Part shown: positions 6,026 to 55,879 of the stretch, one piece after another
How positions within the stretch are numbered: the first letter of the stretch is position 1
Layout: each line of letters starts with the position of its first letter
Assembly (NCBI RefSeq): GCF_947242115.1
Contig: NC_074722.1
Span: forward strand, 29,796,340-29,860,339
DNA: 64,000 nt
DNA from: Biomphalaria glabrata
Taxonomy: Eukaryota
Direction of reading: 5' to 3'
Program-made: the position numbers and the translations under genes
Notes under the pieces: generated by a model
Databases searched by the model: none
Told to the model about the DNA's origin: nothing
Seen by the model: only the letters and a program-made list of their open reading frames with translations

Positions 6026-7150
6026 TTGGGATTTTTAAGCAGACATTTGTAGAAATCAACAATTCTGTATATAATAAGCTGCAAAAGAGCTCACAGCTCA
6101 GCAGCAATAAAGCTGGCTAGAAGAAGAAGTATTTAATAAGAAGGACTGTAGTAAACTGGAATTATCAATTTGTTTTTGGTAATATTTTAGATTGTATTCT
6201 TTTAAGGGGGGATTAGTCAGAATTTACAACAAAAATATGATTTGATATAACGTTTTAGACTTCATGCAACTGATTGATAATGATTAGAAATGTATCTAAC
6301 CTTGGAAATATTTCATGCTAGTTGTTTATGTGTGCGTATGTCAACTATAGAATCTTAAAAAAGCAGAATTGAATTTAGCTGCTAGTAGGATGGTCACCTG
6401 GTCCCGTGGTATGCCCTTCGGACTGTCTTCATGATAGTCGTGCAGGCGTCAGTGGCGTAACTAAAGGGGGGGGGGGATGGGGGGGGGAGAATTTTAAAAT
6501 CCCCCCGGGCCCCCCGACCTAGGGGGGGCCCCCAAATGGGTGTTCGAAATTTATTTGTAAATACATAAATTAATATATTTGATTGACAAATAATGTCAAC
6601 GGGTGTCTTTTTTTAATCAACATTTATGGATTAAATTTATCACAAAGACTAAACCTAGATATTTTAAAAATATTTTTGCCGCAGAGATCAGTTTTTAAAT
6701 ATTGTAGAATTTTTCTATTTTAAACTTTGTTGCCACAAATAAAACTGCATGATATACAGCGAATTCCAGGTATCTTGTTACCTTTACTAATAATAGATCT
6801 AAATGGCGAGTATTATATGGCTACACTAATTAACCTTGAAGCAAAATTTACAGAATCGAGATTAACTAAAAGTTATTCTTAACAATGCTAAAATTGTCCA
6901 TTATTCGGGTTTGGCGTCTATAATTTCAGAATTAAACTTCACACTCGAGTTATTACCCCTTTATTCATCTTTCCTCAATTCAATGGAAACTCTCTCTTTT
7001 TATTTACATCTAATGATCTAATCCTTTTGCTTTCGCACAAAACATAAACAAAAAATAATGACGTAATATCATATAATATTAATACATCCTTCCTATTGAA
7101 ATTATTATCACATCCTTCCTTTTAAAGTTCTTAATAGTGATATCTACTAG

Positions 7151-7564
7151 CAGGGCCGGCCCTAGCATTTGCTGGGCCCTATGCGAAACGGATCGCGCGG
7201 GGCCTAGTCTGGGTAGGGATAAGCATAATGTCAAAATTATTATTTTTTGAATTAGAAAATAGGCCTACTTTCGTCTTTGCAATAAATTTTTATCAAATGA
7301 AAGCTCGCAATGCCACTTTTTATTTATTGGCACCCCAAAACGTCAATTTCGTCGAATCTTCAGGAGATTTGAATAAATTCAAAAAAAGTTCAGGGCTTTA
7401 TCGTATATTTTGCCTTTTCATGAAATTTCCTGGAGGCCCTGAAAAATCAGGAGGTCCCGAAAACCCTGTTATTTTATATACGTTATAATTGTTTAATTTA
7501 ATAATATACACTTGGAATTAGCGCGGGGCCTATGAAAGCGCGGCGCCCACTGCGACCGGCACTG
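7151..7564. mobile_element. hAT-like MITE (414 bp) with TIR CAGGGCCGGCCCTAG / CAGTGCCGGTCGCAG (11/15) and a perfect 8-bp TSD TCTACTAG.
   Basis: TCTACTAG occurs at 7143-7150 and 7565-7572. The termini resemble the CAGTGGCG hAT family found elsewhere in the window. Confidence 0.65.
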
Positions 7565-8650
7565 TCTACTAGGAACTTTAACAATTCGTCCACTTCTGGT
7601 TGTCTTGACTGAACAAGTTCTCTAGACGTTGGTCTATAACTGTCTGCTTCGTTTGTAGCAACAGTTTGCAGTTCATTGTCTTCATCGGTATCATAGTACC
7701 CAGAGAAGCATCCACACAATCCTGATGCAGTCCCAGCTGCGATGGGCAGGTCACGTCTACAGAATGGAAGACCACCGCATCCCTAAACAACTCTTGTATG
7801 GCCAACTAAGCGAAGGAAAGCGCTCGCAAGGTGGGCAAAGAAAGCGCTTCAGGGACACCCTCAAAGCTTCTCTGAAGGCGTTCAGCATAGACCCTGGCAC
7901 CTGGGAGACAGAGGCACATGACAGAGCATCATGGCGTCGCGCTGTGAAAACTAGCGCACAGGTTGCTGAGGAAAAAAGAACAACGCAGGCAGAAGAAAAA
8001 CGCCAGAAAAGAAAAGCAAGACAATTGACACTAGCTCCAGCTGGAATAACCTGCCCAGTGTGCGGCCGAACATTCCGGGCTCACATAGGTCTCACCAGCC
8101 ACATGAGGAGGCATAAAACCCCATTGCATAGCCCTCAGCCCCCTGGATGACAAAGTGGTCATCATCGAACCACGATGGACGAACTATATATCATAGTACC
8201 CAGAGATGTCTTCATCGAAACTCTTATTTAAAAAGCGTTGATTTCTTCTGTATGTTATTCCATTGTTTGTCTTTATGATGTAAGATCTGGCTGCTGAATT
8301 TTTTTTTATGACAACTGCTTTCTGCCATGTTTGACCTAGACGAATAATCTTTAGGTAGTCTTGCTTTTGCATCGTATTTCACTTAGCTTTTCATCTGTCG
8401 TTCGTTGAGTAATGTCTCTGCATTTTCAGCTACCAATGGTTTCAATAGTTTGTCATCAGTTGGAATGATTCCCTGAGTCTTCTACTCGTCAGCAGTTGTG
8501 ATGGTGATTTCATATACGGCAGTCCACTTATCGGAGTATTTCTATACTCGAGCATAACGAGATATGGATCTTTCCCACTTTTGTATACTCTGAATCCTTT
8601 TGCTTTCGCACAAAACATAAACAACCAACAATGACGTAATGCCATATAAT
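7565..8650 (-). mobile_element. Ty3/gypsy-type integrase C-terminal remnant (LEYRNTPISGLPY..SPSQLLTSRRLR ... YIIKTNNGITYRRNQRFL). It is interrupted by the LINE at 7707-8188.
   Basis: Minus-strand ORFs 8442-8645, 8184-8372 and 7498-7719 join into a continuous integrase-tail reading frame once the LINE insert is removed. Confidence 0.6.
7707..8188 (+). mobile_element. 5'-truncated L2/CR1-type LINE 3' end (482 bp) with an 18-bp TSD TATCATAGTACCCAGAGA.
   Basis: The ORF encodes RWAGHVYRMEDHRIPKQLLYGQL...GRP...WR... plus a C-terminal zinc finger CPVCGRTFRAHIGLTSHMRRH. The TSD copies lie at 7689-7706 and 8189-8206. Confidence 0.8.
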
Positions 8651-9436
8651 ATTAGCACAGAATCTCCTTCATGCAGTGGAAAATTACGAATTTTTTGCCT
8701 ATCTTGAATTCTGGTCAAAGCTCCTGTGCCCAATTAATATAGTTCGAAAGAAACTACAAAAGTCTGGACTGCATATACGGGAATCTGCTAAAGAAATTAG
8801 TACCCTTTCATGCTTTCTGCAAAATGATGAGAAACTGACAAAAACCCAATCCATCGAAAAAGCAAAAGAAGGTAGTGAATACTATGGATTCCTTGTAATC
8901 AAAACAACCATATGAAAGAAAAGACTTGATGGGAAGTTGAGTTCTAATGTAGGACTGTCAATACAACTGCAATTCAAACGTGTTGCGACAGAAGTGCTGG
9001 ACAGATTTCATATGGAGATGAAGGGCAGATTCCAAAGGCTGGAAAGAAAATGGATACCTTTGGGTTTCTTCTTGAACCAAGACACCTGTTAGAAGACACG
9101 CTTGTGACAAACTGTGCTACTTTTCCTGTTTGTATGATGAAATAAATGGAAAATCGCTTTTTCAATGATGTCATTGATGCACGAGCACTTTTCATCAACA
9201 AACAGTAATACAATTACAATAAAAGAGTCTTGATGATTACTTTTTGTTAAGTTTACTGATATACTGAACCAATTTGATTTGGGGCTTATATATTTTTGCT
9301 TACATTATCTCATGTCATATGTCGAATGTCAAAATGCAAGGGGCCCCCAAAGAGGTCAATCCCCCCGGGCCCCCAAATCCCTAGTTACGCCCCTGGCAGG
9401 CGTCCATCCCCAACCATCCTGTAGGATAAAAGAAGG

Positions 9437-9672
9437 AAAAGTAATGTACTCCTTTCAGACCTTGTGGTCTGTAGGGCAGATGATGTAAAGGTCATCTGTT
9501 TCTGTGGCCTACAGTTTACGAGGTTGTAATGTGACCAGCACAACGACTCATTAGAGCTGGGTGGACTCAGAGGCTCCCAAAGATCCTGAAATTAAAAAAT
9601 CCCAGGATTTGAACCTGGGACCTCCAATTCGGAAGACAAGCGCTTTACCGCTCAGCCACCGCGCTTCGCCTG
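9437..9672 (-). mobile_element. tRNA-derived SINE (family 1).
   Basis: The reverse complement begins GGCGAAGCGCGGTGGCTGAGCGGTAAAGCGC...GGTTCAAATCCTGG, which carries A and B boxes, and continues into the conserved body ..tctgtttctgtggcc.. shared with the other family-1 copies. Confidence 0.75.
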
Positions 9673-11229
9673 TAGGATAATAACAAGAATAATCTTCATT
9701 TCTGAGGAAACATCCTAAACTTATCAAAAACAACCAACAATTGACAATTATATAAAAAAAATATATTAACAGATTCTAAGTAGTAAGACTAAGACTGCTT
9801 TATTGATCCTTATGGAAATTTGTTGTGATTACAAGGACTCTTTTCTCATATGCAGACAACACAACAGAAACATACACATAAGTAGAACAGACACAACATA
9901 AAGAGTTCATTCATCGACTACACACAGGCATCTTGGTCCTTTTCATGTTTTCTGATCGAAGGGTGGCGTTGATATAGTCTGACCGAGTAAGGAACGAACG
10001 AGTTTTTGTACCGCTCTGTACTTTCTTACATAATCATAGTACATACCGGCTACGCCTGTTGATTTGTTCCCAGGCTTTATATTGTTTCTTATAGCGTTCA
10101 CTCTCTGGAACCCCCATTCTGCTTTTTTTTTTTTTTAACTTGCGCATCGTATTTCTCGGACATTGACTTTTTACTTGATTTAAAAGACCCGCTTCATAAT
10201 GCGCCCCTGACACATACACGATCTCATATTTTGGGCCTGTTAATTTCAGTAACCCTTTGACTTATCCGCTTCACCCCCACCCCACCCCACCCCCGGCCAA
10301 AATTATTTTTAATGCTATTAGGATTGTGTTTTTTTTATAGGCGTCTAAAAAGAAGCGGAAATGACGCAAGACATTAAAAATAAGTAAACTTAGGAAAAAC
10401 GAAAAAAAATGCTATAAAAATACGAAATTTGTGAGACATTTTTTAATGCTTTATGTATAGACTGCGGTCTTTTTTTGGGGGGAAATACCGAAAATAAAAT
10501 ACAAAAGAGTTTTTGAAAAGCTCGCTGTTTTTCGCGAATAGCAGACGTCAGATTTGCGAATCTGTCATAATCGGTTCTTATTGAACGTCCTGGGGGTAAA
10601 AAGAAACTGCCTACGAAATTTCATGCGTATCCGTACTTTAAACTTAAAGATCGCAAGGTCTGAAAGAGGAACTTTGCCTGAATCTAGGTTTAATTATTAT
10701 CCAAGTACATTTAAAATAGCCCCAATGTTTCAAAAAGTACACTATTTTAAGTAAGGGACATTGTTTTGTCTTCTTCCGTTTAAGGGAGAGTCGTCTGCGA
10801 CAATATGAACTGGAAGAAAACACTTCGAAACGTCTCCGCTAACGTGATTCTTCTCGATCTACTTGTTTCAGAATCCTGGAAATTCTTCTGTCTGTAGTAA
10901 GACGTTATGCTAACAGCTTGTGTGTGACAAGCGCATACATCAGCGACAAGACGAAGCTGATCTTACGAATCAGGCTCATTACAGGCGTACGTGTGTTATA
11001 TACACCTTAAATGCCCTTCGCATCATAGCATTAGTCAGTGCTGCCTCTATCTTTATTAGACTAATTTGACCTGCAACAACCAGGATACGAGACTAAAATA
11101 ACCTAGACAGACAGACATATCTGGATAAGACATTTCTGAGTTATGAGTGCAAGAAAACATTTCAATATCGGTCCGTTCCTCCTTTTTTTAAAATTATATA
11201 TATATATAATTGACATGCGTCAAGAACAC

Positions 11230-11811
11230 ATATTAAATAGCTTCTACTTACGCTGCCTGCGGCGCATAATGTGCATATCCTGGAAGGATCATGTCTCCAA
11301 CCAGGAGGTTCTGAAACGGGCCAATATTCACAACATGTATGCTCTTCTTACACAGAGAAGACTACGCTGGCTCGGTCATGTCACTCGCATGCCAGATGGA
11401 AGAATACTTAAAGACATACTATACGCTGAGCTTGCAAATGGAGTCAGACCCAAGGGCCGCCCAAGACTAACCTACAGAGATGTCTGTGAGCGAGACATGA
11501 GAACCACGGGCATCGAACAAAGTATGTGGGAGGAGATATCCCAAGACCGGACAGCATGGAGACAGACTGTACGTGCTGGTACGAACTTCGCCGAGTGCAA
11601 AAGTAACGAAGCTGCATCAGTCAAGAGAAAGAAGAAGAAAGCTGCCTGTCAACTAGCCCTAAGTCAGATGCATATACATGCACGAACTGTGGCAAACTCT
11701 GCCGCTCCAGAATTGGCTTGATCAGTCACACCAGATTCTGCCCCGTCTCAAGACCAATCCAAAGCCAATGACTCACCTGGGCCCATCCATTGTCTTCCGA
11801 GACACAAGGAG

Positions 11812-17059: not shown

Positions 17060-17300
17060 CTACCGCTGATATTGTTTTCCCGGGTTCAAACCCTAGTGAA
17101 GACTGGGATTTTTATATTCGGGATCTTTGGGCGGCTCTCAATCCACCCAGCTCTAATCAGTACCTGACATTAGTTGGGTAAAAGTAAAGGTGGTTGGTTA
17201 TTGTGCTGGCCCCATGACACCGTCGTTAACCGTGGACCACAGAAACAGATTACCTTTACGTCATCTGCCTATAGATTGCAAGGTGTGAAAGGAAAACTTC
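17060..17300 (+). mobile_element. SINE family 1 copy, 5'-truncated and preceded by a G15 run.
   Basis: Contains ggttcaaaccctagtgaagactgggatttttat...acctgacattagttgggtaaaagtaaaggtggttgg...tttacgtcatctgcctatagattgcaagg. Confidence 0.7.
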
Positions 17301-18559: not shown

Positions 18560-18779
18560 GTGAGTGGTTGATCAGCTGTCAATTGGGTTAGACTGTTAGA
18601 CAATGATATATTGCTAGTATATTGACATAATTAGTAGAATCTTGTAAATTAGAAACAAAATCATTCAAGAAAAATAAAAAGCAAAGTAACAATCTTTTAA
18701 TAATAAGATTGAAATAAACTTACAAATACAGAAATAAGACCTATGAAATAATTTCCTATTTCAATGGTAAGTAGATCCT

Positions 18780-18945
18780 CAGAAAAGCACCAGAAAAGAA
18801 AATCAAGGCTATTGACACAGGCTCCAGCTGGAATAGCCTATCCAGTGGGCAGGCTAACAATCACATAGATCTCACCAGCCAACGAAGTGCAAAGCCCTTA
18901 GCCTCCTAGATGACCAAAGTGGTCATAATCATATCATGAATGATG
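18780..18945 (+). mobile_element. Degraded fragment of the same L2-type LINE 3' end as 7707-8188.
   Basis: Aligns with 8010-8188 (..gctccagctggaata.cct..ccagtg..ctcaccagcca..gatgac.aaagtggtcat.atc..). Confidence 0.6.
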
Positions 18946-19438
18946 GATGAACTCTATTTTTGTACAAATGCCAATCAATTGAATAGTAAATAGCATTTTG
19001 TAATATACCACCAAAAACTGCTCAGATCTTCATTGTATACTTCCTAAGCTCTGTCTTCTTGAAGTGAGATTCTGCATGTAAAAAAAAAACACCTTCTATC
19101 TACTCAAACCATTTCAACTGACTATTATCAGATATTGGCAATAGGTAGATTGCATAACTACAATTAGACCTTGATCCTAAAACATCTTTTTTTTATAGAG
19201 CAGGTCAAATAATCGCAAATAGATCTTGCTCCTAAAATGCACTATCATTGATTAGCCATCTTTATTTTTTTTTTTTCATATTTCTCTGGCGGACTTCGAC
19301 CATAAGTTGTCCACTTATGGCCCATATTTTTTTATTATTCCATCCCTATTTCCTTCTTTGTGAAACTGAGTCATGTAAGTTGTGGCTACTTTTATTAGCA
19401 CATTTTTGGGCTGGAATTAATCATGTGATCCTTTCCAG

Positions 19439-19544: not shown

Positions 19545-19744
19545 GTGAGAATAGTGGATTGTTTGTTGTAGAAAATTGTAGATGTCCATGTGGTCAGTTG
19601 GTTGTACATTGTTGCAGTGCATAGCTGCATTATGTCCAATGCTGGCTGGTTGTGAGGCTAGCAGTTTAGAAAGCTGTTGATTGTGTTAAGATCAGTTCCT
19701 ATATCTCTGTAGGAATTATGGGATATTGTATGCAATAAACATTG

Positions 19745-19925
19745 CATTAGCTAGGGTTAGGGGAGGGGAGGTCCAAATTTGAAATTCCCCAAGACCCCCC
19801 ACTGGAGAAGGGCCCCCAAATGAGTGTCCGAAATTTGTTTTTACATTAAATATAATGCCATTATCTCATGTCATGATGATGAATGTCAAAATGCAGGGGT
19901 CATTAAAGAGGTCAAGCCCCCCAGG
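19745..19925. mobile_element. Internal fragment of the CAGTGGCG-family MITE, lacking both termini, in GLT1D1 intron 3.
   Basis: Contains gggcccccaaatgagtgtccgaaatttgtttttacattaaat...gtcaaaatgcaggggtc...aagaggtcaagcccc, homologous to the body of the element at 42112-42312. Confidence 0.65.
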
Positions 19926-20104
19926 CTGTAATTTTATTTATTAAAGGATATACAACATTTGCTTGAAAAAAATATCAGATATTTTTAAAACTGGAAAATA
20001 GTTGATGTTCTATTACAAAATAGATTCAGAACTTCATTGAATTTTTTTTTATATCATGTTTGTTTCTTAACTCAATGTTACAATATTTTATTCTTTAACT
20101 AAAG

Positions 20105-21122: not shown

Positions 21123-21184
21123 GTAAAGTATGAGGCTGACTTGTTGGGGATTCCTGAGGGTAAAATACTATTTTTCCCTCATAA

Positions 21185-21460
21185 AGAAAAGTAAAGTTAA
21201 CCCTTTCAAACCTTGTGATCTATAGGGCAAATGACGTAAAGGTCATCTGTTTCTGTGGCCCATTGTTAATCAGGGTGTTATGTGCCCAACACGAGGACCA
21301 ACCGCCAAGACTTTTCTCCACCTAATATCAGGTACCCATTAGAGCTGGGTAGACTCAGAGGTCCCCAAAGATCCGGAAATTAAAAATCCCAGTCTTTACA
21401 AGGATTCGAACCCAGGTTTGGAAACCAAGCACTTTACCACTCAGCCACCACACCTCCTTT
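21185..21460 (-). mobile_element. SINE family 1 copy in GLT1D1 intron 5.
   Basis: Contains the conserved body aaaggtcatctgtttctgtggcc...gggtagactcagaggtccccaaagatccggaaattaaaaatccca...ggattcgaacccagg. Confidence 0.75.
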
Positions 21461-21464
21461 TGTA

Positions 21465-21720
21465 GTAAAGTTCCCCTTTCAGACCATAGGGTTGATGATG
21501 TTAAGGGCATCTGTTTCTTTGTCAAACCTTTAACGATCAGGCTGTCATGTGGCCAGCATAACGAACAACCGCCTTTACTTTCCCCAACTAAAGTCAGAGA
21601 CCATCAGAGTTGGGTGGACTCAAGCGCCCTAAAAATCTAGAAATTCAAAATCCCAGTCTTCACCGAAATTAGAACCCAGGACCTCGAGGTTTGGAAGACA
21701 AGCGCTTAACCACTCATCCA
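21465..21720 (-). mobile_element. SINE family 1 copy, in tandem with the previous one.
   Basis: Same architecture as the neighbouring copy. The tRNA-like head lies at 21650-21715. Confidence 0.75.
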
Positions 21721-22269
21721 CTGTGCCCCCCCAATTTCTCCATCATGCATAGTCTCTAGTGTTATTTTAGGTAGCAAGCAAAGTCCTTGGATTGAAATTA
21801 TGCACAGTCTTTAACACTCAACAATTACATACTTATTTTTTCTTTCAGTCTTTATACTATTTTTTCTGCAAACACTATCTATTTGTTAACTCCCTTATTG
21901 GAGCTTGACTTTTTATTTAATGCTGAATTATCTTATAAGTTACAGATGTTCCTTCAAATTAAAAGATATCCATGTTAATATACACCATAACTACATCTGA
22001 TATTACTAATTGTTGCGAGCAAATGAGACTCTTACTCATACACCAAGCAGACTCATCTATAGTAGATTATGAGGACTTTAATCTTGATTCAACAAATAAT
22101 AATATGTCAATAATAACCTCGTTTACATTACTCCATATTTGGATCCTTCTCTTCCAATACGCATTCGCTCCATTCCACATTCCCACTATGCTGCGCACGT
22201 AAAAGTCATATCTATACTATATTCTTTGTTTTATTTAAACCCATAAACATTTTGTTTATCACCTTACAG

Positions 22270-27244: not shown

Positions 27245-27672
27245 AGTCGTGAAACGACTATGGTTCATCTCGAACACTTTTGCATAAGGCTGTGGAGCCC
27301 TATTTTAGAGAGACACTCCCGTCCACATATATTGCATGTCAAGGTGGAGTTCGCTATGTGGTAGAGGAGCTGGCCATTTATCTTGTGGCACGCTTTTAAA
27401 GAATTGAGGCCCATGTTTTCTCGCTGTCTATAGCTTTCATGGTCACCGTCTCTCCAACTAGTGTGGTCTAAAGCTATGTCTTCCCAATGGTCAGTATCAA
27501 TGTTTACTGATTTTAAATCCCTTTTTATCACATCAACATAATGGAGGTGGGGGCGACCAGTTTTTCTTGAACCAGACGCAAGTTGCCTGTACAGAATGAT
27601 TCTCGGGATGCGATTGTCCCCCATCTGGCAAACATGTCCGAGCCAGCGCAGGTGGCGTTGCTTGATTGGATT
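27245..27672 (-). mobile_element. 5'-truncated L2/CR1-type LINE 3' end (ORF2 C-terminus with zinc finger CNICGRECLSKIGLHSLMQKC) plus a 3' stem-loop.
   Basis: Minus ORF 27265-27624 reads ...RHLRWLGHVCQMGDNRIPRIILYRQLASGSRKTGRPHLHYVDV...DHTSWRD. Confidence 0.75.
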
Positions 27673-28597: not shown

Positions 28598-28870
28598 AAG
28601 GAGGCACGGCGGCTGAGTGGTTGAGTGTTTGTCTTCTGAACTGAGGGGTTCCAGGTTTGAAGACTGGGATTTTTTATATTTATAAGGAGTGTCTGAGTCA
28701 ATCCAGCTCTAATGGGTACTTGACATTAGTTTTGGAAAAATAAAGGATGTTCTTTGTGCTGGCCACATGACACCCTTGTTAACCATGGAGTATAGTAACA
28801 GATGACCTTTACATCATCTGCCCCTTAGATTGCAAAGTCTGAAAGAGGAACTTTACTTAGTTATATAAGA
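28598..28870 (+). mobile_element. SINE family 1, full-length copy.
   Basis: Reads GGAGGCACGGCGGCTGAGTGGTTGAGTG...GGTTTGAAGACTGGG with A and B boxes, then the conserved body and tail ...gattgcaaagtctgaaagaggaactt. Confidence 0.8.
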
Positions 28871-40777: not shown

Positions 40778-42111
40778 GCCCCCCCCCCCACTCCAAAGTT
40801 CTGGATCCGCCAGTGCCTGTCTGTCCGTCGTCCATCCGACCCGTTTAGATCTCGTAAACTAGAAAAGATAGTGAAAATCCGACATAATATACTTTATGCC
40901 ATTCAAAGATCTGATGCAACGGCTACTATTTTCTATTTTGAAAGCGAAAAATCTAATTTTTTAAATCACTTATGCAAGCAATTTTTTCATAAAAATACAC
41001 CACTTTTACAACTATTCATTATTAATAGTAACAAACACTTGAGGCTTATTTTTAACACATTTAAATAGACAGTTGTAGATTTTTTGTCAATTGTTTTTAC
41101 TTCTAGGCTTATTGTTAAGTTATGTAAGTTCTGTTATACTAAGTACTATATTTATACACACACAAAAAATATTATTTTTTAAAGAGAAAAAATCTATTTA
41201 GTATGGGTACAAGTCAGACATAATATAAAACAACAATTAATAAGTATTTTTTCATAATATAGCGTGAACTGTATTGGGTGACATTCAGGATAGTATAAAA
41301 CACCTAACCAAAGAAAAAACAATTTTTTTATTTTTTTTTTACGGAAATGTTTTATTCATGAGGAATACGAGATTGGCCCTTAACAAAACAATTAGACCAA
41401 TTAGATATTCATTATAATACATCAGTTAGGCCAAGTTCACATCTAACTTCACATTCACTTTCAGCTATCCTTTGGTCTGCTGGACCGCTGAGGCACCACA
41501 CGAGATCTGTTAATCTTTTTTTCTCCATTATTTTCTGTCATTTGTCTTTGAAAGAATTTCATTCTGATAAAATTGAAACCTGCCTTTTTACCTGCCTGGG
41601 TGGACCATTCCAGGGTCGATTTTCAGTTTGTGTTTCCACACAAACTGTCTTTGTAACCTTATTTTTCTTTTCATAAACAAATTTCTCTGGCAACACGGTG
41701 GTATTTTGGTCATCGGATATTGTTCTGAAAATACTAGGACGTAGGCTATTACTAATCCCCACTATTCCAACCAACTTGATAGCTACCAAAAAGATACGTA
41801 CAAGACCAATTTGTATCAGCATGTAAATCCATGACCATCGTCTCGGCAGTCAATGGCTCTACCACCGTAACCTTATACCTGCTTCATGGTAAGTATTTCA
41901 AACTTACCTCCGTACTTGATAACAACAAAACTTGGATTCTGGGATGTGTTCATATGATCTCTGTTCATTGTTCAGGTTTAACAAGTAGACCCTACCGCAC
42001 ACAAGTTTGAAACCATGCAACGCCAACTAACACTTGTGTACGCCAAGTCAAGACAAAGCTAAAACCAACAAAACAAAATAATTGTTAGTCCTACCCTTGG
42101 AAAGTATTTGG

Positions 42112-42312
42112 CAGTGGCGTAGCCAGGGTGGGGAAGAGGGGGAGAATTTGAAAATTCCCGGGGCCCTATTTGAAAGGGTTCCCCAAATGAGTGTTCGAAA
42201 TTGTTTTGTTTTTTACATTAAATTTTAAATATTACGCAAAATGCTGAGGGACCCCAAAGAGGCCAAGCCCCTCGGGCCCCCAAATGATGGCAAATTCCTA
42301 GCTACACCACTG
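42112..42312. mobile_element. 201-bp hAT-family MITE, reference copy. It has TIR CAGTGGCGTAGC(C/T)AGG and a perfect 8-bp TSD GTATTTGG.
   Basis: GTATTTGG occurs at 42104-42111 and at 42313-42320. The termini are cagtggcgtagccagg ... cctagctacaccactg. The element has an internal palindromic G/C-run core. Confidence 0.85.
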
Positions 42313-42429
42313 GTATTTGGCATTTTAAAAAAGTGGGCACTACTCCACGTCTTTCTTAAAAATGTATTTTATAAACTTTATTTCAGCCTGCCAATTTAGT
42401 TGTTCTCTTCTCTCTTGTTTAGATTACAA

Positions 42430-45416: not shown

Positions 45417-45848
45417 GATTTTCTGTATTACAAGTTATAACTTGATTTTCTGTATAACAAGGTATAATTTGATTTTCTGTATTACAAAGTATAATTAATT
45501 TTCTGTATTACAAGATATAACTTGATTTTCTGTATAACAAGGTATAATTTGATTTTCTGTATTACAAAGTATAATTAATTTTCTGTATTACAAGATATAA
45601 CTTGATTTTCTGTATTACAAGGTATAACTTGATTTTCTGTATTACAAGGTATAATTTGATTTTCTGTATTACAAGGTATAACTTGATTTTCTGTATTAAA
45701 AGGTATAACTTGATTTTCTGTATTACAAGGTATAACTTGATTTTCTGTATTAAAAGGTATAACTTGATTTTCTGTATTAAAAGGTATAACTTGATTTTCT
45801 GTATTAAAAGGTATAACTTGATTTTCTGTATTAAAAGGTATAACTTAT
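45417..45848. repeat. 27-bp minisatellite, about 16 units (attttctgtattacaaggtataacttg), with a 3-unit higher-order repeat at the 5' side.
   Basis: Direct reading. The 124-aa and 84-aa ORFs across it are repeat artefacts. Confidence 0.95.
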
Positions 45849-45944
45849 TTACGTGAATGTCCAAACCACTAACGGAAATAATTTTATATTGAAGCACAAT
45901 TTGATAATTGGCTATTAAATCGCAATATAGCATCAAACTTTTTA

Positions 45945-47720: not shown

Positions 47721-48142
47721 AAAGTGATAAAAACAGAAACGAATAAAAAAGATTAAGGGACATAACTAATAAATCTACTATCGTGTGTATGATGGCCCAT
47801 TACCTCCCACAAATGCCCACAATACATTTTAAATTGAGGTGTCAACAAAGTGGTTTCCGGACAACTTTTGTGTCTACAAAGACAGGCAGGGCAACTAGTA
47901 AACAATCGCTCTTTGTGAAGCTACTGCAATATCACAGATCCATAGAGTTCTATACACCAAAGCAGTGGCGTAGCTAGAGTATATGATGCCTGGTGCGGTA
48001 CCTCATCTTGATGCCCCCCTCCCCCCCCCCCCAAAAAAAAAATTATTAGTAACATTGCAAAACCTTACTTTTTTGTTCAAAATAATATGTATTCATTAAT
48101 CAAATATTGTTAATTCAAAAAAATCACTTTTACATAAACATA

Positions 48143-49200
48143 CTATAAATAAATTTTACGCGCTTTCTTGCTGGCAAAAGTATCAATAATTTTATCAAAA
48201 TCAATTTTTTCCACCAGCTCTTGTTCAATGGACAAAATGGCCAAATTAGTGAGTCGTAAATTTGTCATCGTTGATCGCAAGTAATTCTTAATAAGTTTAA
48301 GTTTGGAAAAACTTCTCTCGCATGTAGCGACGCTTACTGCAATAGTCAAAAATAGGCGAATCATGATGACGATATTCGGGACTGAATCATCTAGCTGATA
48401 TTTTGTTATAAATTTCAAGAGCTCAAAAGGTCCTTGTTTTGGAAGTTAGGAGGCTTCTGATGAAACTGTGACAAACTGTTGAAGCCTCTTTCATTCCAGC
48501 AGAAATTCGTTTTTATCAATGTCGCTAGGAGTACTATCGAGATTGATTTCGACCTGAGGATTTAATAGCTGGGAAGGCGACAAAAATTCATATCTATCTG
48601 CTACACCATGAAGTTGCTCGAATCGGGAGATTATTTCTTGAACAATCCTGTCCAAGGTAGAATAAATTTCCCTTCGTAGCTCTTCTTTGTGTGTAAGTAC
48701 AGAGTCGTCACTTTTCTCACCAGGCATCTTTTTCTTATGGCCGATACGTTTTTGAGGTTCTGTACTGATTCTCAGATCTGAACACACGCTTTCGGCAAAG
48801 GTAATGCTGGCTTCAGCGATGTCCTCTCGATTAATACTTTAAAATGTCTCTAGTTTTTAGTTTGAGTGAACAGTCTTGAATAGACAATCCTTGTTTTTGA
48901 AGGTAGAATTGCGCATCATTAATTTCAGTTAATACAGGAGCCCAAAATCCAAGATAGGTGAGAAAATTAAAAGACTGAATAACAACCAATAATCCACCTG
49001 CTTCAGATCTAGTCGATGAATATTCATCTCTGCTAGTTAATGTCTCCAGAGTTTCTATAATTTTAGAAAATGTATCCCTAACGATCTTGACGGCTTCTCC
49101 TCTGGCGCTCCAGTGGGTCTCAACTAGACGTTTAAGGTTAGTTCAGGTTATTTTGATGAGGATATCCCAGCGGTGTGTTGAAGTTGAGAAAAAGGAGTGT
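48143..49200 (-). pseudogene. hAT transposase C-terminal half, frameshifted remnant. It contains the hATC dimerisation domain (ATCERSFSKLKLIKNYLRSTMTNLRLTNLAILSIE) and a T(R/H)WSARGEAV region.
   Basis: ORFs 48143-48418 and 48491-48787 plus broken frames up to about 49200. The ..THWSARGEAVKIVRDTFSKIIETLE motif is typical of hAT transposases. Confidence 0.75.
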
Positions 49201-49739
49201 GAACGGTCCAGTGTACCAAAAAATGACAAGGCCTAAAGTTTAATAACATTCTTTTCTTTGGTGGGAAAGGTTGAGATGAAGTTATGCTCTTAGGTTTATT
49301 TGATTCATTGTTGATACCTACATTACAATACTCTGATGAATTACGAGTTATCTGTATTCAGTGCTTTATGTTTTTGCATTTTATGATTTTACATTGCAAA
49401 TTTTGAAATGTTTTAGTATATTTTATTCTTTTTGACTGTTGTTTAATTATTACTGTATTGTGTACACTGTGCTGATGGTTCAGCTTCTTCAGTAGGAATG
49501 TTTGAGGAGTGTACTAGAAACATGCTTGTGTGCTGGCTGTCCTTTAGTCTCTAGAACCTGCGGTATTGAAGTAGTTTCTTCTTTTTCATCATTCAGGATG
49601 TCGGCCTCATCATTTTTTTTCTGGATTCAATGATAACCGTCTCATCTTGCTTTGTTGCTTTTAATTGTTCAGTTAATTCATACCCAATAACAGCTCGCCT
49701 ATAGTCGGTGGACTCTGGCAATGATGTGACTTGAAATTG

Positions 49740-50850
49740 TCTCGATACTTCTTTAGACTTAAGAAATTTAAGAAACGCACCTCACTGCGGTCAAAGAAAC
49801 TGCTTTATGCGGATGACATTGCCCTCTGGTCAACCGGGAAGAAAGCCGACTAAATGCATGCGGCTTTACAAGCAGACCTCCAAACCATCTCCTCGTATTG
49901 CGACAAATGACAGATTCAGATAAACGTTACCAAAACGACCTGGTCCCTGTTCAGCCTAGGGATCGACATTCTTAAGGCTCTATTCGAGCTTCAACTCGGT
50001 GGGCTGAGACTCCAACGTGAAAACATGCCAAAATATCTAGGGGTGACCCTGGATAGAAAACTGACAATGCTCCAGCACGTCCAGGAAGTTGAAAGAAAAG
50101 CCTCGGAGAAGTTAGCGTTACTAAGAAAGCTGGCCAGCACAAAGTGGGGTGTCAAAGCTAACATGCTACGCACAGTGTACTTAGGGGCAGTCAGATCACA
50201 AATTGAGTACAGCTATACAGTTCAAGTATATGCTAGTAAAACTGCCCTCGAATCACTCGACTGAGTACAATTACAGGCACTAAGGTTCATTTGTGGCACC
50301 TTTCTGACAAGCCCAACAAACGCTGCTGAAATCTTAACAAACATGGCCCCTTTACATTTAAGGAGGGAGAGGGCGGTACTTACGGCCTACGAGCGCTACA
50401 AAAGGGGCGACTCTAGGCTACCCACCACAATCTTAGTGCAACAATGGAGAGAGAGGAACCGCATTAAAATGCGATCGTTCCTCCACATTGCGACCAATTT
50501 GTCAAAATCAGCTGGGCTCTCCACTGATAGAATTCCTACTAGGAGAATTAGTACTTGCCCTGCGTGGAGGAGATTGCCGGCCCCACAAACAAACATGTCC
50601 CTTATAGGGCAAGAGGGAGCCACCAAGAGGCGATTAACATCTGCCATACTCCAAAACTTGGCATCAGCTACACTAAAGTCCTACCCATCAGATACCATTT
50701 TCTACTATACCGATGGGTCGGTAATGAGGGACCCCGATAGATCTGGGTATGGGGCCCTTATAGTCTACCCAGACCGGAAAGAACCAGAGATGCCGATTTC
50801 TCCATCTGAGCTTAAAAGGGCTTTGAGGCGCCAGCCAGACTAGTCAGTCT
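49740..50850 (+). mobile_element. I/R1-like non-LTR retrotransposon fragment (RT motif YADD, then RNase H IFYTDGS) nested inside the hAT element.
   Basis: Reads LLYADDIALWSTGKKAD, then MPKYLGVTLDRKLTMLQHV...WGVKANMLRTVYLGAVRSQIEYS, then ..TIFYYTDGSVMRDPDRSGYGALIV. Contains stops and frameshifts. Confidence 0.7.
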
Positions 50851-51552
50851 TGAGCACTGTTCATCATTTTGTTTTACGTTACAGTATTACAATTAACTAC
50901 TTAGTTTAAAAAATAAAACTCGTAGAAAACAAAGGTTAGCTTATTTAAAAATATTGACATTACAATAGAATTATTTCCAAAATTAAACTTTAAAGAATCA
51001 TAAAGAAATGAATAAACTAAGACAATTATTTAGAGCTAGAGTTTAGAAATATATTTGTAAACTCTATATCTAGATTAAACCAATGGACTAAACAATGAAG
51101 TAAAAAAAGGTTGGCCTATCTTCTTCTTCTTCTTTATATTACAGAGCATTGATCAGTGTAGTAACAACATGTACCGTGTGTCCGAAATAAATCTAGTAAA
51201 TTAGATACAAACTGTTCTATAGCTTACATTGTATGGAAGAAATAGTCAAGGAGATGAAACAAAATAGCAACATGACTAGTTTATAAATCGTTAATTCATG
51301 TTTAAAATACAGTAGTTTGTTCGTGTCCATACAGTTAGTTGTTTTTACTGAAAAGCTCATGGAAATAGAAAATTAATACACACTGTGTGAATTTTGGTGC
51401 CCCTCTCCACTTGGTGCCCTGTGCGGCCCGCACCACCCGCACATTGGTAGCTACGCCACTGCACCAAAGAGTGAAGTATTACCCTCCCTTCTTTAGAGTA
51501 GGCCTAAACTACACTAATATTTCTGAAATAGAAGATTTCCCTCACCCCTTTT

Positions 51553-51811: not shown

Positions 51812-53245
51812 TCAAGCCCATCCTTTAAAAACAATTTTTCCATCACTGTTGAATGTGCTGTAGAGATCATGAGATTCATGGGAACTATTCATTACTATCG
51901 AATTGAAATACTTCATGGCGAGATTCTTGTTGTAAAGTGAATCCCGTGGTAGCTCTTTAATGTACTTCCGGTTCCACTCTGACCTGGTGGCATTGTGGGA
52001 TGTGTACAGAGCTGTTACAGTTCGGCCAACGTTTATCACCAGGTGGCCCAGCGTTCTAGAACGCGCTATCAAAAACGGAACCAGGGCGTCGTCGTCGATG
52101 ATTAAAGGTGGAACGTCTGACATGTCTTGCTTGGTAAACACGAAATACACGAAAGCAGCCTGAGGGTTTTCCCACTCGTAGCTCCCTCTGGTGTAGGCCA
52201 GCAGGTTGAGCTCGTACAAGTCCGCAGCGCTACTGAGCTTTTGGTAATGCATGGCTTCCCCGTACATCGCGATAGGCTTCGAGGTGGGAAATCGGTTAGA
52301 TTTAGATTTTTCGTTCTGCGAGGACTTGACTAGGATCTCTTTGACGCCTAAGAGTGACTCTAGAAAGGACGCGTCGAATACACTTGTGGCCTTGACGTAG
52401 CCGTAAAACGTAGCGCTAAACTTTTCCATCACAACCTTGGCCATATTTTGAAAAATGGGAAGGCCTCCAGAACTGTAACCCGGCACCGGAAGACAGGTGA
52501 AGTTCATGGCGTTGGCGTTAGCCATAGTCATCCTGCTGTCCGTAAAGATGATGGTTTCGACGAATGGTCGAACCCGCTTGCAGTTTTCCAGTAGCAGCTT
52601 TCTGCTGAACTTGTCCACGTCCACCAAGTAGTCAGGCCACCAAGTGAATAGAAGCAGTAAATACGGCTCAGCCTTTATTGTGATGTCTTCAAAGAGTTTG
52701 AGTAAACGCGGACAGAAGTTTGCGTCGACTGTCCTTTTCACTAGTTGTCGAGTTCTGGAAACGTTGTAGCACAGGTGTTTACGTAAATACCCAGGATTCA
52801 CCGAAGAAACTATTTTCGTAATATTGGAAACGGGTGGAAGAACCTTATAGTTGGCAGTTATATTTCCTGAAATCGACACGTTGCTCTCGGGGATAGACAA
52901 CCCCATGCCTTGCGCAATGTCTATGTTGTATTGAACATCCGTGCAAATGACGTCCAGTTTTGACTTCAAGCAGTGGTCTTTCAGCTTGGGCCCTCTTTCC
53001 CGCTGAGCCCAAACGATTTCAATGTCGTTTTGGAACTGTTTCAGCACGAGCTCCCTGGAAACGTGGCTCCTTTCCAGTTCATTGTAGGGCACCAACGGCG
53101 TTTTAAGTCGAAAGGCCCAAAGCTTGTTCCTTACAAAACTAATAATAAAAGACCCGCTCAGAAGTAGAAATACAAAAAGAATCGGTAGTGAAAATCTCAG
53201 TAATCGAAGCAGTACTCGCTGGATAGACATCTTCTGAAAATTCAA
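51812..53245 (-). CDS. Intronless 477-aa type-II membrane protein (N-terminal signal anchor, luminal domain with about 9 N-glycosylation sequons). Glycosyltransferase-like with a DxD-type motif (PPLIIDDDALV). Family not assigned.
   Basis: The ORF track gives a continuous 1434-nt ORF, far above chance in about 35% GC DNA. The TM segment FSLPILFVFLLLSGSFIISFV follows a short basic cytoplasmic tail. Sequons NVS, NIT, NFT, NAT and NSS are present. A FTWWPDY motif is present. No canonical sulfotransferase PAPS-binding motifs were found. Confidence 0.6.
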   Translation of the reverse strand: MNFQKMSIQRVLLRLLRFSLPILFVFLLLSGSFIISFVRNKLWAFRLKTPLVPYNELERSHVSRELVLKQFQNDIEIVWAQRERGPKLKDHCLKSKLDVICTDVQYNIDIAQGMGLSIPESNVSISGNITANYKVLPPVSNITKIVSSVNPGYLRKHLCYNVSRTRQLVKRTVDANFCPRLLKLFEDITIKAEPYLLLLFTWWPDYLVDVDKFSRKLLLENCKRVRPFVETIIFTDSRMTMANANAMNFTCLPVPGYSSGGLPIFQNMAKVVMEKFSATFYGYVKATSVFDASFLESLLGVKEILVKSSQNEKSKSNRFPTSKPIAMYGEAMHYQKLSSAADLYELNLLAYTRGSYEWENPQAAFVYFVFTKQDMSDVPPLIIDDDALVPFLIARSRTLGHLVINVGRTVTALYTSHNATRSEWNRKYIKELPRDSLYNKNLAMKYFNSIVMNSSHESHDLYSTFNSDGKIVFKGWA

Positions 53246-53434: not shown

Positions 53435-53665
53435 AAAAGTTCCCCTTTCAGACCTTGTGGTCTGTTTTTTGTGGCCTACGGTTAACAAGGGTGTCATGTG
53501 GCCAGCACAACAGCAACCAACCGCCTTTACTTTTTCCCAATTAATGTCAGGTACCCCTTAGAGCTGGGTAGACGCGAAGATCCCGAAATTAAAAATCCCA
53601 GTCTTGACCAGGATTCGAACACCGGTCCCCGGTTCGGAGGCCAAGCGCTTTACAGCTCAGAAACC
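53435..53665 (-). mobile_element. SINE family 1 copy.
   Basis: Contains ..ccttgtggtctg..tgtggcctacggttaacaagggtgtcatgtggccagcacaac...gggtagacgcgaagatcccgaaattaaaaatcccagtcttgaccaggattcgaac... Confidence 0.75.
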
Positions 53666-54004
53666 GCGCCTCATTTTAATTACTGATTCTAAGCTATTAT
53701 CTCCAGAGCTTTGTATTAAGGTTGTTTCCAACAGTTTAAATAGGCATAAAGTACTGACATGGTTGGGGAGGGAGCTCTAAAGCTTTTTTTTCACGTTTCT
53801 CTTACCTAATGTTGCACTTTCGACATGAATATCTGAACGTACTTGATTTGATAGCCATATTATGGCCCATATTATATTTAGGTGACTCGCGAAAAAAAAA
53901 ATTTCTTAAGAATATGTAAGCAATTTTTTTTCTAGAATACATTAATTATAGCAAGAAAATCTATTCGAAATAATCTCCAGTTCCTAAGGGCGCGTTAGCT
54001 GACT

Positions 54005-55110: not shown

Positions 55111-55879
55111 AAATAGTGTTGATGAATGAATGAATGGAAGAAAAGGCCAACATATTCACGTGCATTAGGTTGAATATTAATTCTATTGAAGCCACTAAGC
55201 CAATACAAGAAAGTGTGTTGCACTGCTAGAAGGTTTCCTTAATATATTTAATATGATATATATCTTTCTCTGTCACGAAGACTTCTAGATTGGTCACTAT
55301 AGCCATCTTAAAGGTCTCATCCAGTGTGAATCTCACCCATAGTGTCCCATTTGAGTTTTTGTTTCTACTTTCTTCCTTGTTTAGTTAAAGCCACGCCACT
55401 GTTTTTTTTTATAATTTTTTTTTGACATGAGTCCAAAAGGACATGAAGCCTGATAGCCTTTTCTAAATTTATTGATTTGCCCTATAGCTGTTACTGGTCG
55501 TTGACTTGTAGCACCAAACTGATGGTAGACAACTAAACCGTTGTAGGCGTAATATAACTAGTAGGCTAAACGTGAAAAAAAACACTTCAATAACTTTCTT
55601 TTGTGAACAAAACTAAATAAAACTTTATAATATAGACAAAACCAACTTGTGATAAATTAAATAAATGTAGCAGACTTTAGTAATAATATCTTTTAGCAAA
55701 ATCTAACACACTACAATAACACAACCTTTCAGTCTCATGTTCTGGAGTCGTCTTCTCAACTCAGACCAAATGACGACATTGCCACCTATGTTGCATCATT
55801 CACAACCAATCGCTAACCTCTTCAACCGTCACCATAGAAACACACACACACACACACTCCATAACACCCATGCATACTT

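Follow-up and report, generated by a model that had tools for sequence, protein, structure and literature searches.

A rearranged hAT transposon derivative in Biomphalaria glabrata with probable retrotransposon filler DNA and two nested insertions

A segment of about 2.9 kb in the genome of Biomphalaria glabrata has the ends of a hAT-type element and holds pieces of several other transposable elements, which raises the question of how such a composite was assembled. The segment lies within a stretch of 64,000 nucleotides (contig NC_074722.1, positions 29,796,340 to 29,860,339), referred to here as the window, and all coordinates are positions in the window. It had been described in an earlier note as one MITE, integrated once and holding about 2.7 kb of extra material, acquired either by capture of foreign sequence before transposition or by three successive insertions. 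The coordinates given there for the outer 8-bp target site duplication (TSD), the inner MITE and the LINE tail with its 18-bp TSD were all reproduced.

Results

Ends of the outer element

The two ends and the copy used as a reference were delimited as follows.

6442 to 6449: left outer TSD copy, 8 bp, GCAGGCGT, identical to 9396-9403 and directly adjoining the terminal inverted repeat (TIR).
6450 to 6562, plus strand: left terminal region of a hAT element, with the TIR CAGTGGCGTAACTA and G/C-rich subterminal motifs; aligns to 42112-42209 and 19760-19846.
9303 to 9395, plus strand: right terminal region of the hAT element, with the TIR at its end; aligns to 19859-19926 and 42237-42312.
9396 to 9403: right outer TSD copy, GCAGGCGT, identical to 6442-6449.
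42112 to 42312, plus strand: 201-bp MITE of the same family (reference copy), with the TSD GTATTTGG at 42104-42111 and 42313-42320.

The TIRs, CAGTGGCGTAACTA at 6450 and CAGGGGCGTAACTA (the reverse complement of 9382-9395), were identical at 13 of 14 positions, and the TIR pattern CAGKGGCGTARC was enriched within the window (7 matches, 0.24 expected). The family termini are of the CAGTGGCGTAAC type. Both ends aligned to the 201-bp MITE, 6450-6558 to its left part and 9330-9395 to its right part, and a degraded copy at 19760-19926 matched the same element ends. An 8-bp TSD, as in hAT elements, is present on both sides of 6450-9395 and in the family copies (GTATTTGG and CACCAAAG), and the TIRs of 6450-9395 fall within the short range of hAT elements (about 10-25 bp).

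Two independent MITE copies, truncated on opposite sides and lying 2.9 kb apart with a coincidental 8-mer match, would be possible in principle, which is all that can be said for them. The chance of an exact 8/8 match adjoining both TIRs is about 1.5e-5, which makes a single integration secure. The two halves are also complementary and correctly oriented, and the hAT transposase remnant that they enclose has the expected orientation; the two-copy reading is effectively refuted and has next to no probability. The segment 6450-9395 is thus a single non-autonomous hAT transposon of 2,946 bp, integrated once with the TSD GCAGGCGT; the single integration had been proposed in the earlier note from the identical 8-mers at both ends.

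Transposase remnant

8655 to 9205, plus strand: pseudogenised piece of the element's own hAT transposase, from the region between the DUF4371 and dimerisation domains.

The translation of this piece gave 16 matches with phmmer, the longer of which carry DUF4371 and Dimer_Tnp_hAT. Identity to proteins with both domains was 30-62% over the inter-domain region, and residues 186-238 of one homolog (P0134) aligned to 9062-9193 (E 3.6e-4). At the DNA level, relatives were found with 82-85% (L001) and 67% (L003) identity. By the Pfam labels on its relatives, the transposase belongs to a ZBED5/FAM200-like group, and a neighbouring ORF of one relative carries DUF4371 and a weak match to FAM200-ZBED5_RNase-like. 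Unlike those transposases, 8655-9205 is pseudogenised: its reading frame is broken by one stop and one frameshift, and neither the catalytic nor the dimerisation domain is present. Since DUF4371 and the hAT dimerisation domain are both absent from it, its assignment rests on homology to the hAT inter-domain region; the dimerisation domain is present in a second element with the same TIR (see below). Pfam searches of the conceptual translations gave no match for the transposase remnant or for the integrase tail described in the next section, so the homology of both is that shown by the database searches. No TIRs were found around a full-length relative (L006) on its short contig.

The upstream edge of the remnant is sharp: the alignments of six protein homologs and two DNA relatives start at 8654/8655. 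Upstream of this breakpoint L001 is still transposase coding (VDTRSS; compare VDTRNK/VDTRSK in P0133 and P0132), as is L003, which matches residues 243-445 of P0145. A JGI metagenome match (L002) to the 20-mer that spans 8654/8655 shares nothing past the 20-mer and was set aside as chance. What the element has kept are its termini, of about 110 and 95 bp, and some 550 bp of the transposase gene; the 5′ three-quarters of the gene and the dimerisation domain were lost. Judged from these features, 6450-9395 appears to descend, by internal rearrangement, from an autonomous hAT with a transposase of the DUF4371/Dimer_Tnp_hAT type.

MITEs are shorter than about 800 bp and have no coding remnant. The 201-bp copy at 42112 and the 414-bp element at 7151-7564 are of this kind; 6450-9395, at 2,946 bp and with a transposase pseudogene, is not, and what had been counted as extra material in a MITE includes, at 8655-9205, the element's own gene. 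Given this pseudogene, the 201-bp MITE is the derived form and the long element stands closer to the ancestor. The short copies at 42112-42312 and 19760-19926 arose in the same hAT family by further deletion, with internal breakpoints that are not the same in the two.

A second derivative, at 47963-51461 (TSD CACCAAAG), has the same 14-bp TIR and the C-terminal half of the transposase, with an internal LINE fragment in place of the 5′ half. Retroelement pieces thus replace the transposase 5′ half in both (2/2) of the long hAT derivatives in the window, which hints at a recurrent process.

Retrotransposon integrase fragment and the D1 repeat

The interior to the left of the transposase breakpoint consists of the following parts, interrupted by the two insertions described in the next section.

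6563 to 7019: AT-rich internal stretch, found once in the window, lacking protein homology and any long ORF.
7020 to 7086, minus strand: D1-left, direct repeat copy, holding the stop codon of the integrase-tail ORF (7079-7081) and the next ~60 nt; the ORF ends ...GRMY and the stop.
7087 to 7150, minus strand: last part of the integrase C-terminal tail ORF, left of the MITE; removal of the MITE with one TSD copy joins it in frame to 7573-7706 (...LKFLVD/ITIKNFKRK...GRMY and the stop).
7573 to 7706, minus strand: middle part of the integrase C-terminal tail ORF, between MITE and LINE, the frame being continuous on both sides once the inserts are excised.
8207 to 8592, minus strand: Ty3/gypsy-like integrase fragment, from ...KSGKDPYLVMLEYRNTP... 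towards the C-terminus, with four in-frame stops and rve/Integrase_H2C2 homologs.
8593 to 8654, minus strand: D1-right, 62-bp direct repeat copy, exactly between the integrase and transposase breakpoints.

The minus strand of 8190-8591 matched rve-type integrases; the homologs, among them a K02A2.6-like protein, carry PF00665 and PF17921 (E 4e-13 to 2e-21; 32% identity and E 2e-21 for the K02A2.6-like protein). Excision of the LINE and the MITE, each with one TSD copy, gave one integrase-tail ORF of 124 codons, an open frame whose chance was estimated from base composition at about 1e-4; restoration of the frame by excision had been put forward in the earlier note as a check. The integrase C-terminal region, its stop codon and the downstream sequence lie antisense, in place of the lost transposase 5′ part.

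The two copies of D1 (7020-7086 and 8593-8659) bracket the integrase fragment and are 90% identical over 67 nt, or 92% over 62 nt. D1 was considered as a part of the integrase and rejected, as all integrase alignments stop at its inner edge: 5/5 begin at 8573-8591, although the segment just upstream is conserved among the homologs. It was likewise rejected as native hAT sequence at this position, where L001 and L003 have transposase coding sequence. Junction microhomology was weak (about 3 nt).

No recognisable LTR and no TSD (4-6 bp in Ty3/gypsy elements) were found for the gypsy piece; its only long direct repeat is the 62-67-bp D1, and no LTR-like copy was detected in the window. Only the C-terminal part of the integrase is present of the retrotransposon, and it starts abruptly. 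The lack of a recognisable LTR or TSD, this abrupt start and the second, 62-bp copy at the transposase junction disfavour arrival by integrase, and we infer that the fragment did not arrive in that way.

Read on the minus strand, 6563-7019 follows the integrase ORF and the 67-bp repeat, with purine-rich tracts about 75 and 100 nt after the ORF stop and no clear LTR start behind them. This stretch may derive from the 3′ UTR/LTR of the retrotransposon or be native 5′ sequence of the hAT. It bears on an unlikely alternative, that a complete Ty3/gypsy element was inserted by its own integrase into the resident hAT transposase gene and that a later large deletion took its 5′ LTR, gag, PR-RT-RH and most of the integrase together with the adjacent hAT 5′ portion, the junction being patched by the 62-bp templated copy. 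Such a deletion would explain both breakpoints at once, and the passage of the minus-strand fragment through the pol stop into 450+ bp of non-coding DNA (7019 to 6563), which could be 3′ UTR, PPT and LTR, would suit it, as would the purine-rich tracts. Against it stand the lack of a recognisable LTR start (TG right after the PPT), of an LTR copy in the window and of a retrotransposon TSD, and the three steps that it needs (insertion, large deletion, templated patching) where one repair event would do. Moreover, the LINE fragment in the second hAT derivative cannot be a simple insertion with a one-sided deletion.

An old 201-bp MITE that took three successive ordinary insertions (gypsy, then hAT MITE, then LINE) would account for the match of the termini to the 201-bp MITE and for two inner elements with clean TSDs, and is nevertheless highly improbable. 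A hAT transposase piece some 100 bp from the right terminal region is not expected in a MITE, and no separate TIR and TSD surround it. The differing internal breakpoints of the short copies are those expected of derivatives of a longer element. The gypsy piece, for its part, is an internal pol fragment without recognisable LTR or TSD, with abrupt breakpoints and a templated 62-bp duplication, so that the three successive insertions offered in the earlier note as one alternative are not supported.

Nested MITE and LINE tail

7151 to 7564: 414-bp non-coding hAT-like MITE inside the integrase tail, with a perfect 8-bp TSD, TCTACTAG, at 7143-7150 and 7565-7572 adjoining both termini.
7707 to 8188, plus strand: 482-bp 5′-truncated LINE 3′ end, with a perfect 18-bp TSD, TATCATAGTACCCAGAGA, at 7689-7706 and 8189-8206.

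Both are true nested insertions, each with its own TSD, as had been reported before. The MITE has the termini CAGGGCCGG and CAGTGCCGG and subterminal GCGCGGGGCCTA motifs, and is a canonical later insertion into the retrotransposon-derived segment.

The LINE tail encodes an ORF2 C-terminal domain with a C2H2 finger in an intact ORF of 141 codons (7725-8150), followed by a short 3′ UTR without poly-A. Its translation gave a sub-threshold zf-C2H2 match with Pfam (E 4e-5) and was 91% identical to a protein of Biomphalaria glabrata over an alignment whose first position is exactly 7707. Having the 3′ end, the 5′ truncation and the TSD left by target-primed reverse transcription, 7707-8188 is a canonical later insertion, a 5′-truncated copy made by that process. 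The same 3′ end occurs again in the window at 18781-18957; the two copies share a small hairpin in the 3′ UTR, whose fold is no more stable than that of shuffled sequence.

In its 5′ truncation, TSD, lack of poly-A, small 3′ hairpin and C-terminal domain with the motif ...LRWAGHV.RM..., which we take to be of the CR1/L2 group, the tail resembles 5′-truncated insertions of stringent-type LINEs (CR1/L2 group). It differs from CR1/L2 insertions in the 18-bp TSD, which seems long for them, and clade assignment needs the RT domain, which is absent from 7707-8188 and from the other LINE tails in the window. Literature searches on clade placement gave nothing decisive.

Searches for further copies

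Self-BLAST of the window gave no other copy of the composite. An exact look-up of 10 ORFs in a protein collection gave no match, and for the B. glabrata protein P0012 no gene was on record. The repeat to the right of the element begins 30 bp past the TSD and offered no empty-site comparison; a search of this repeat for a tRNA-derived SINE gave no tRNA (ARAGORN).

Discussion

Taken together, the structure of 6450-9395 is probably best explained as a hAT derivative that received retrotransposon filler DNA during an interrupted repair and was later entered by a MITE and a LINE. The termini are kept, there are two breakpoints (8654/8655 and 8592/8593), and a 62-bp templated copy lies between them, as in filler DNA from abortive gap repair. 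From the anatomy of the junctions alone, we infer a repair with a template switch. Most likely, hAT excision would have been followed by double-strand-break or gap repair that was interrupted; with an ectopic retrotransposon as its new template, the repair strand would have copied 62 nt and then, after slipping back by some 590 nt, have passed over this stretch a second time, which would make D1-right a templated junction insertion and the retrotransposon sequence filler DNA. Such repair could take place at the donor site, so that the TIRs and TSD would be kept without later transposition. The MITE (8-bp TSD) and the LINE (18-bp TSD) would have entered the retrotransposon-derived segment afterwards; they could also have been in the donor retrotransposon already, prior to copying. 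With both its ORF and its TSD intact, the LINE is probably the most recent of these events. As neither insertion is nested in the other, the relative order of MITE and LINE is not recoverable, contrary to the earlier note, in which the insertion order was held to be reconstructible.

Capture, the other alternative of the earlier note, comes closer to the sequence than successive insertions. Transposition after capture, which was part of that proposal, is not required if gap repair captured the fragment in situ at the donor site, and the absence of paralogous composites is for the same reason not decisive as a refutation. It is doubtful that the composite is a mobile "cargo" hAT that gained the retrotransposon fragment (perhaps with the MITE and LINE), then transposed to GCAGGCGT and exists in further copies; were this so, hAT elements of the snail would routinely transduplicate and spread coding fragments of retroelements.

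For annotation, the preferred reading, a repair-derived hAT, means that the segment is one non-autonomous hAT with a transposase pseudogene, retrotransposon filler, a nested hAT MITE and a nested LINE tail; annotation as a MITE with three insertions is inappropriate. A further outcome is a link between the CAGTGGCGTA-type MITE family and hAT transposases of the DUF4371 type in the Biomphalaria genome. Not mentioned in the earlier note were the transposase remnant, the D1 repeat and the fact that the gypsy piece has neither a recognisable LTR nor a TSD. The structure is ordinary transposon decay, known biology that opens no new biological question, and the 62-bp templated junction copy is a clean breakpoint example of the kind used to infer a repair-mediated origin of non-autonomous elements.

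Two known systems are close. The Ds-like elements of maize (Ds-del, Ds-l3 and Ds-l4 of the Ac/Ds hAT group) are likewise non-autonomous hAT derivatives with 8-bp TSDs and conserved TIRs, and contain sequences from LTR retrotransposons and other transposable elements (Du et al., 2011; PMC3260210). The element at 6450-9395 differs from them in coming from a snail, in its DUF4371-type transposase and in its TIR (CAGTGGCGTA...), and is known here from sequence alone. The non-autonomous hobo/hAT elements of Anolis carolinensis are animal hATs that incorporated extraneous DNA, often transposable elements of other classes, as filler, interrupted gap repair giving rise to internally deleted copies (Novick et al., 2010; PMC3014272); unlike them, the composite described here is a single copy in the window, with no sign of amplification.

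Results

The window is 65% A+T and interspersed repeats are abundant in it, which marks it as eukaryotic DNA. The features used in the analysis are listed below.

Features of the long element (6450-9395, 2,946 bp) and related sequences, in window positions
6442-6449 and 9396-9403: outer 8-bp TSD GCAGGCGT, identical copies at both sides
7151-7564: inner MITE, termini CAGGGCCGG and CAGTGCCGG, perfect TSD TCTACTAG
7707-8188: LINE piece, perfect 18-bp duplication at both sides
8592 to 8190, minus strand: integrase fragment, matching rve/Integrase_H2C2 proteins
8655-9205, plus strand: hAT transposase remnant, decayed coding sequence
42112-42312: 201-bp family copy with its own 8-bp TSD GTATTTGG
47963-51461 (47955-51469 with flanks): second non-autonomous hAT element, perfect 14-bp TIR CAGTGGCGTAGCTA at both ends, TSD CACCAAAG
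21183-21456, 21464-21726, 28601-28858 (minus), 17103-17293 (minus) and 53436-53672: copies of a ~270-bp interspersed repeat

Integration of 6450-9395 as one element, once, is secure, since the exact 8-mer GCAGGCGT is expected at both ends by chance with a probability of ~1.5e-5. The TIRs (CAGTGGCGTAACTA at 6450 and an inverted match, 13/14, ending at 9395) each lie directly next to a copy of this 8-mer; the terminal pattern CAGKGGCGTARC was matched 7 times in the window (0.24 expected). Both ends of the long element (~110 bp on the left, ~95 bp on the right) match the respective halves of the 201-bp element at 42112-42312, as well as a degraded copy at 19760-19926. The single integration with MITE-family ends described in the earlier note is thus upheld, and its coordinates for the composite were all exact. 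The internal left/right join differs between the two short copies, of which only that at 19760 contains 9303-9340 of the long element, as would be expected if each had arisen by its own deletion from a longer ancestral element.

In full, the degraded copy (the third of the CAGTGGCG MITE family) spans 19735-19926, with the left TIR mutated to CATTGCATTAGC and the right end truncated. A solitary TIR-like match, CAGTGGCGTGGC at 55390-55401 (minus strand), is without obvious partner and may be a truncated hAT end. One copy of the ~270-bp repeat (9433-9667) starts 30 bp right of the outer TSD and the pair at 21183-21726 is arranged in tandem; a tRNA-like part was looked for in this family and not found. 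Spurious ORFs on both strands at 45562-45936 stem from a short, tandemly repeated unit (~27 bp, as implied by the translated unit KIKLYLLIQ).

The transposase remnant was most similar to an ORF of 109 aa from a metagenome contig, at 75% identity in aa and 82-85% in nt. An exhaustive phmmer search yielded 16 relatives, the longer of which carry DUF4371 and a hAT dimerisation domain; the match of the remnant falls between both. By tBLASTN the remnant continues in a shifted frame to ~9193-9205, and the dimerisation domain is gone from 6450-9395. On one contig with a relative (L005), the ORF upstream of it carries DUF4371 and a weak match to FAM200-ZBED5_RNase-like. The 2.9-kb element is therefore a decayed hAT still holding part of its own gene, rather than a MITE packed with foreign sequence; the earlier note had overlooked the remnant. 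The ENA contigs with close transposase relatives are labelled metagenome assemblies (L001, ERZ27287745; L003 and L005, ERZ27297344), and probably include DNA from some other animal host, such as a snail related to this one; identity to the remnant was 82-85% (L001) and 67% (L003) at the nt level, and ~60% aa for the L005 ORF P0132.

The second hAT element retains the C-terminal half of a transposase at 48146-49232 (minus strand), including Dimer_Tnp_hAT (Pfam E 6e-12); in place of the 5' half is an internal LINE fragment (~49760-50843, plus strand) spanning the RT 'ADD' box to the RNase H 'YTDGS'. Its transposase remnant is only 31-36% identical to that at 8655, so that the element represents a different family that shares the TIR; it provides an independent link between TIRs of this type and hAT transposases of the DUF4371 type. 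Directly to its right lies an uninterrupted 477-codon ORF (51812-53245, minus strand) whose N-terminal segment is hydrophobic and which matches nothing in Pfam; it may be an intronless host gene.

Transposase alignments begin at 8654/8655 in six protein homologs and two DNA relatives, and upstream of this point the relatives carry on as transposase coding sequence (L001 reads VDTRSS, vs VDTRNK in the homolog P0133 and VDTRSK in P0132; L003 matches residues 243-445 of the homolog P0145). The window has instead, at 8593-8654, a 62-bp sequence 92% identical to 7020-7081; the two form the direct repeat D1. The integrase fragment (for example, 32% identity to a Ciona 'K02A2.6-like' protein, E 2e-21) begins abruptly inside the integrase, since 5/5 alignments start at 8573-8591 and homologs carry a conserved ...ERxxQTLK..LKKA... 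segment directly upstream. The breakpoints at this junction had been overlooked. The minus-strand order is hAT, D1-right, integrase C-terminal fragment, D1-left, 457 bp of AT-rich DNA and hAT left terminus; D1-left is the natural stop codon of the integrase ORF with downstream sequence, and D1-right a copy of that stop codon plus ~60 nt. No LTR or 4-6-bp TSD was recognisable for the retrotransposon fragment by direct repeats, window self-comparison or sequence inspection. In the main rival explanation, which was considered unlikely, an ordinary gypsy element inserted first, and a large deletion whose junction received a templated patch then left this arrangement.

The inner MITE has GC-rich subterminal motifs (GCGCGGGGCCTA) and no further copy within the 64-kb window. 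The segment 7707-8188 is a 5'-truncated LINE copy made via target-primed reverse transcription. Its 141-codon ORF is uninterrupted, contains a C2H2 finger and shares 91% identity with a Biomphalaria glabrata protein, the alignment starting exactly at 7707; relatives from corals, fishes and other gastropods are weaker. These matches point to Biomphalaria, or a planorbid close to it, as the probable source of the window. The same 3' end occurs again at 18781-18957. Further 5'-truncated LINE tails at 11143-11721 (plus), 27265-27660 (minus) and 18776-18957 (plus) share the C-terminal domain (…LRW.GHV.RM…) and terminal C2H2 finger and, at 33-46% aa identity, represent several diverged families; the RT domain is absent from 7707-8188 and from these tails. 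Removal of 7707-8206 and 7151-7572 restored one open minus-strand integrase frame of 124 codons (MQKQDYL...RFLNKSFDEDISGYYD / TDEDNE...LKFLVD / ITIKNF...GRMY-stop), a check that the earlier note had proposed for the LINE; the chance of such a frame is estimated at ~1e-4 at window base composition. Successive insertion thus fits the MITE and LINE, canonical and with their own TSDs, but is not supported for the gypsy piece, with its abrupt start and no recognisable LTR or TSD.

Discussion

The retrotransposon-derived part of 6450-9395 is most likely filler DNA, copied in from ectopic sequence during abortive gap repair. The simplest reading is copying, dissociation and re-invasion by repair synthesis: synthesis on the hAT template would have stopped at 8655 and switched to an ectopic retrotransposon, of which 62 nt were copied; the repair strand would have dissociated and re-invaded the retrotransposon template ~590 nt upstream; and a second pass would have run through the integrase tail and duplicated those 62 nt. 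Because repair of this kind takes place where the donor element sits, TIRs and TSD are kept, and the choice offered in the earlier note, between capture before transposition and successive insertions, omits this most likely option; its observed features hold, and its interpretation is supported in part.

The rearrangement is old, since the D1 copies differ at 5/62 positions (6-7/67) and four in-frame stops have accumulated in the integrase fragment. Both MITE and LINE lie within the retrotransposon-derived part and neither is inside the other, so their relative order is not readable from structure. The intact ORF and perfect 18-bp TSD of the LINE suggest that it is the youngest event; either insert may already have been in the donor retrotransposon when this was copied. 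No further copies of the composite were found by window self-comparison, exact ORF look-ups or a metagenome junction scan.

With its repair-type chimeric interior, the locus is a nested, decayed transposon of a typical kind, and as such known biology. That non-autonomous hAT elements can originate by abortive gap repair is well known. In maize, Ds elements hold fragments of other TEs, LTR retrotransposons among them (PMC3260210). In Anolis, the filler DNA of hobo/hAT elements includes other TEs, and internally deleted copies are the outcome when gap repair is interrupted (PMC3014272). The element at 6450-9395 resembles both in carrying sequence of other TEs inside a non-autonomous hAT.
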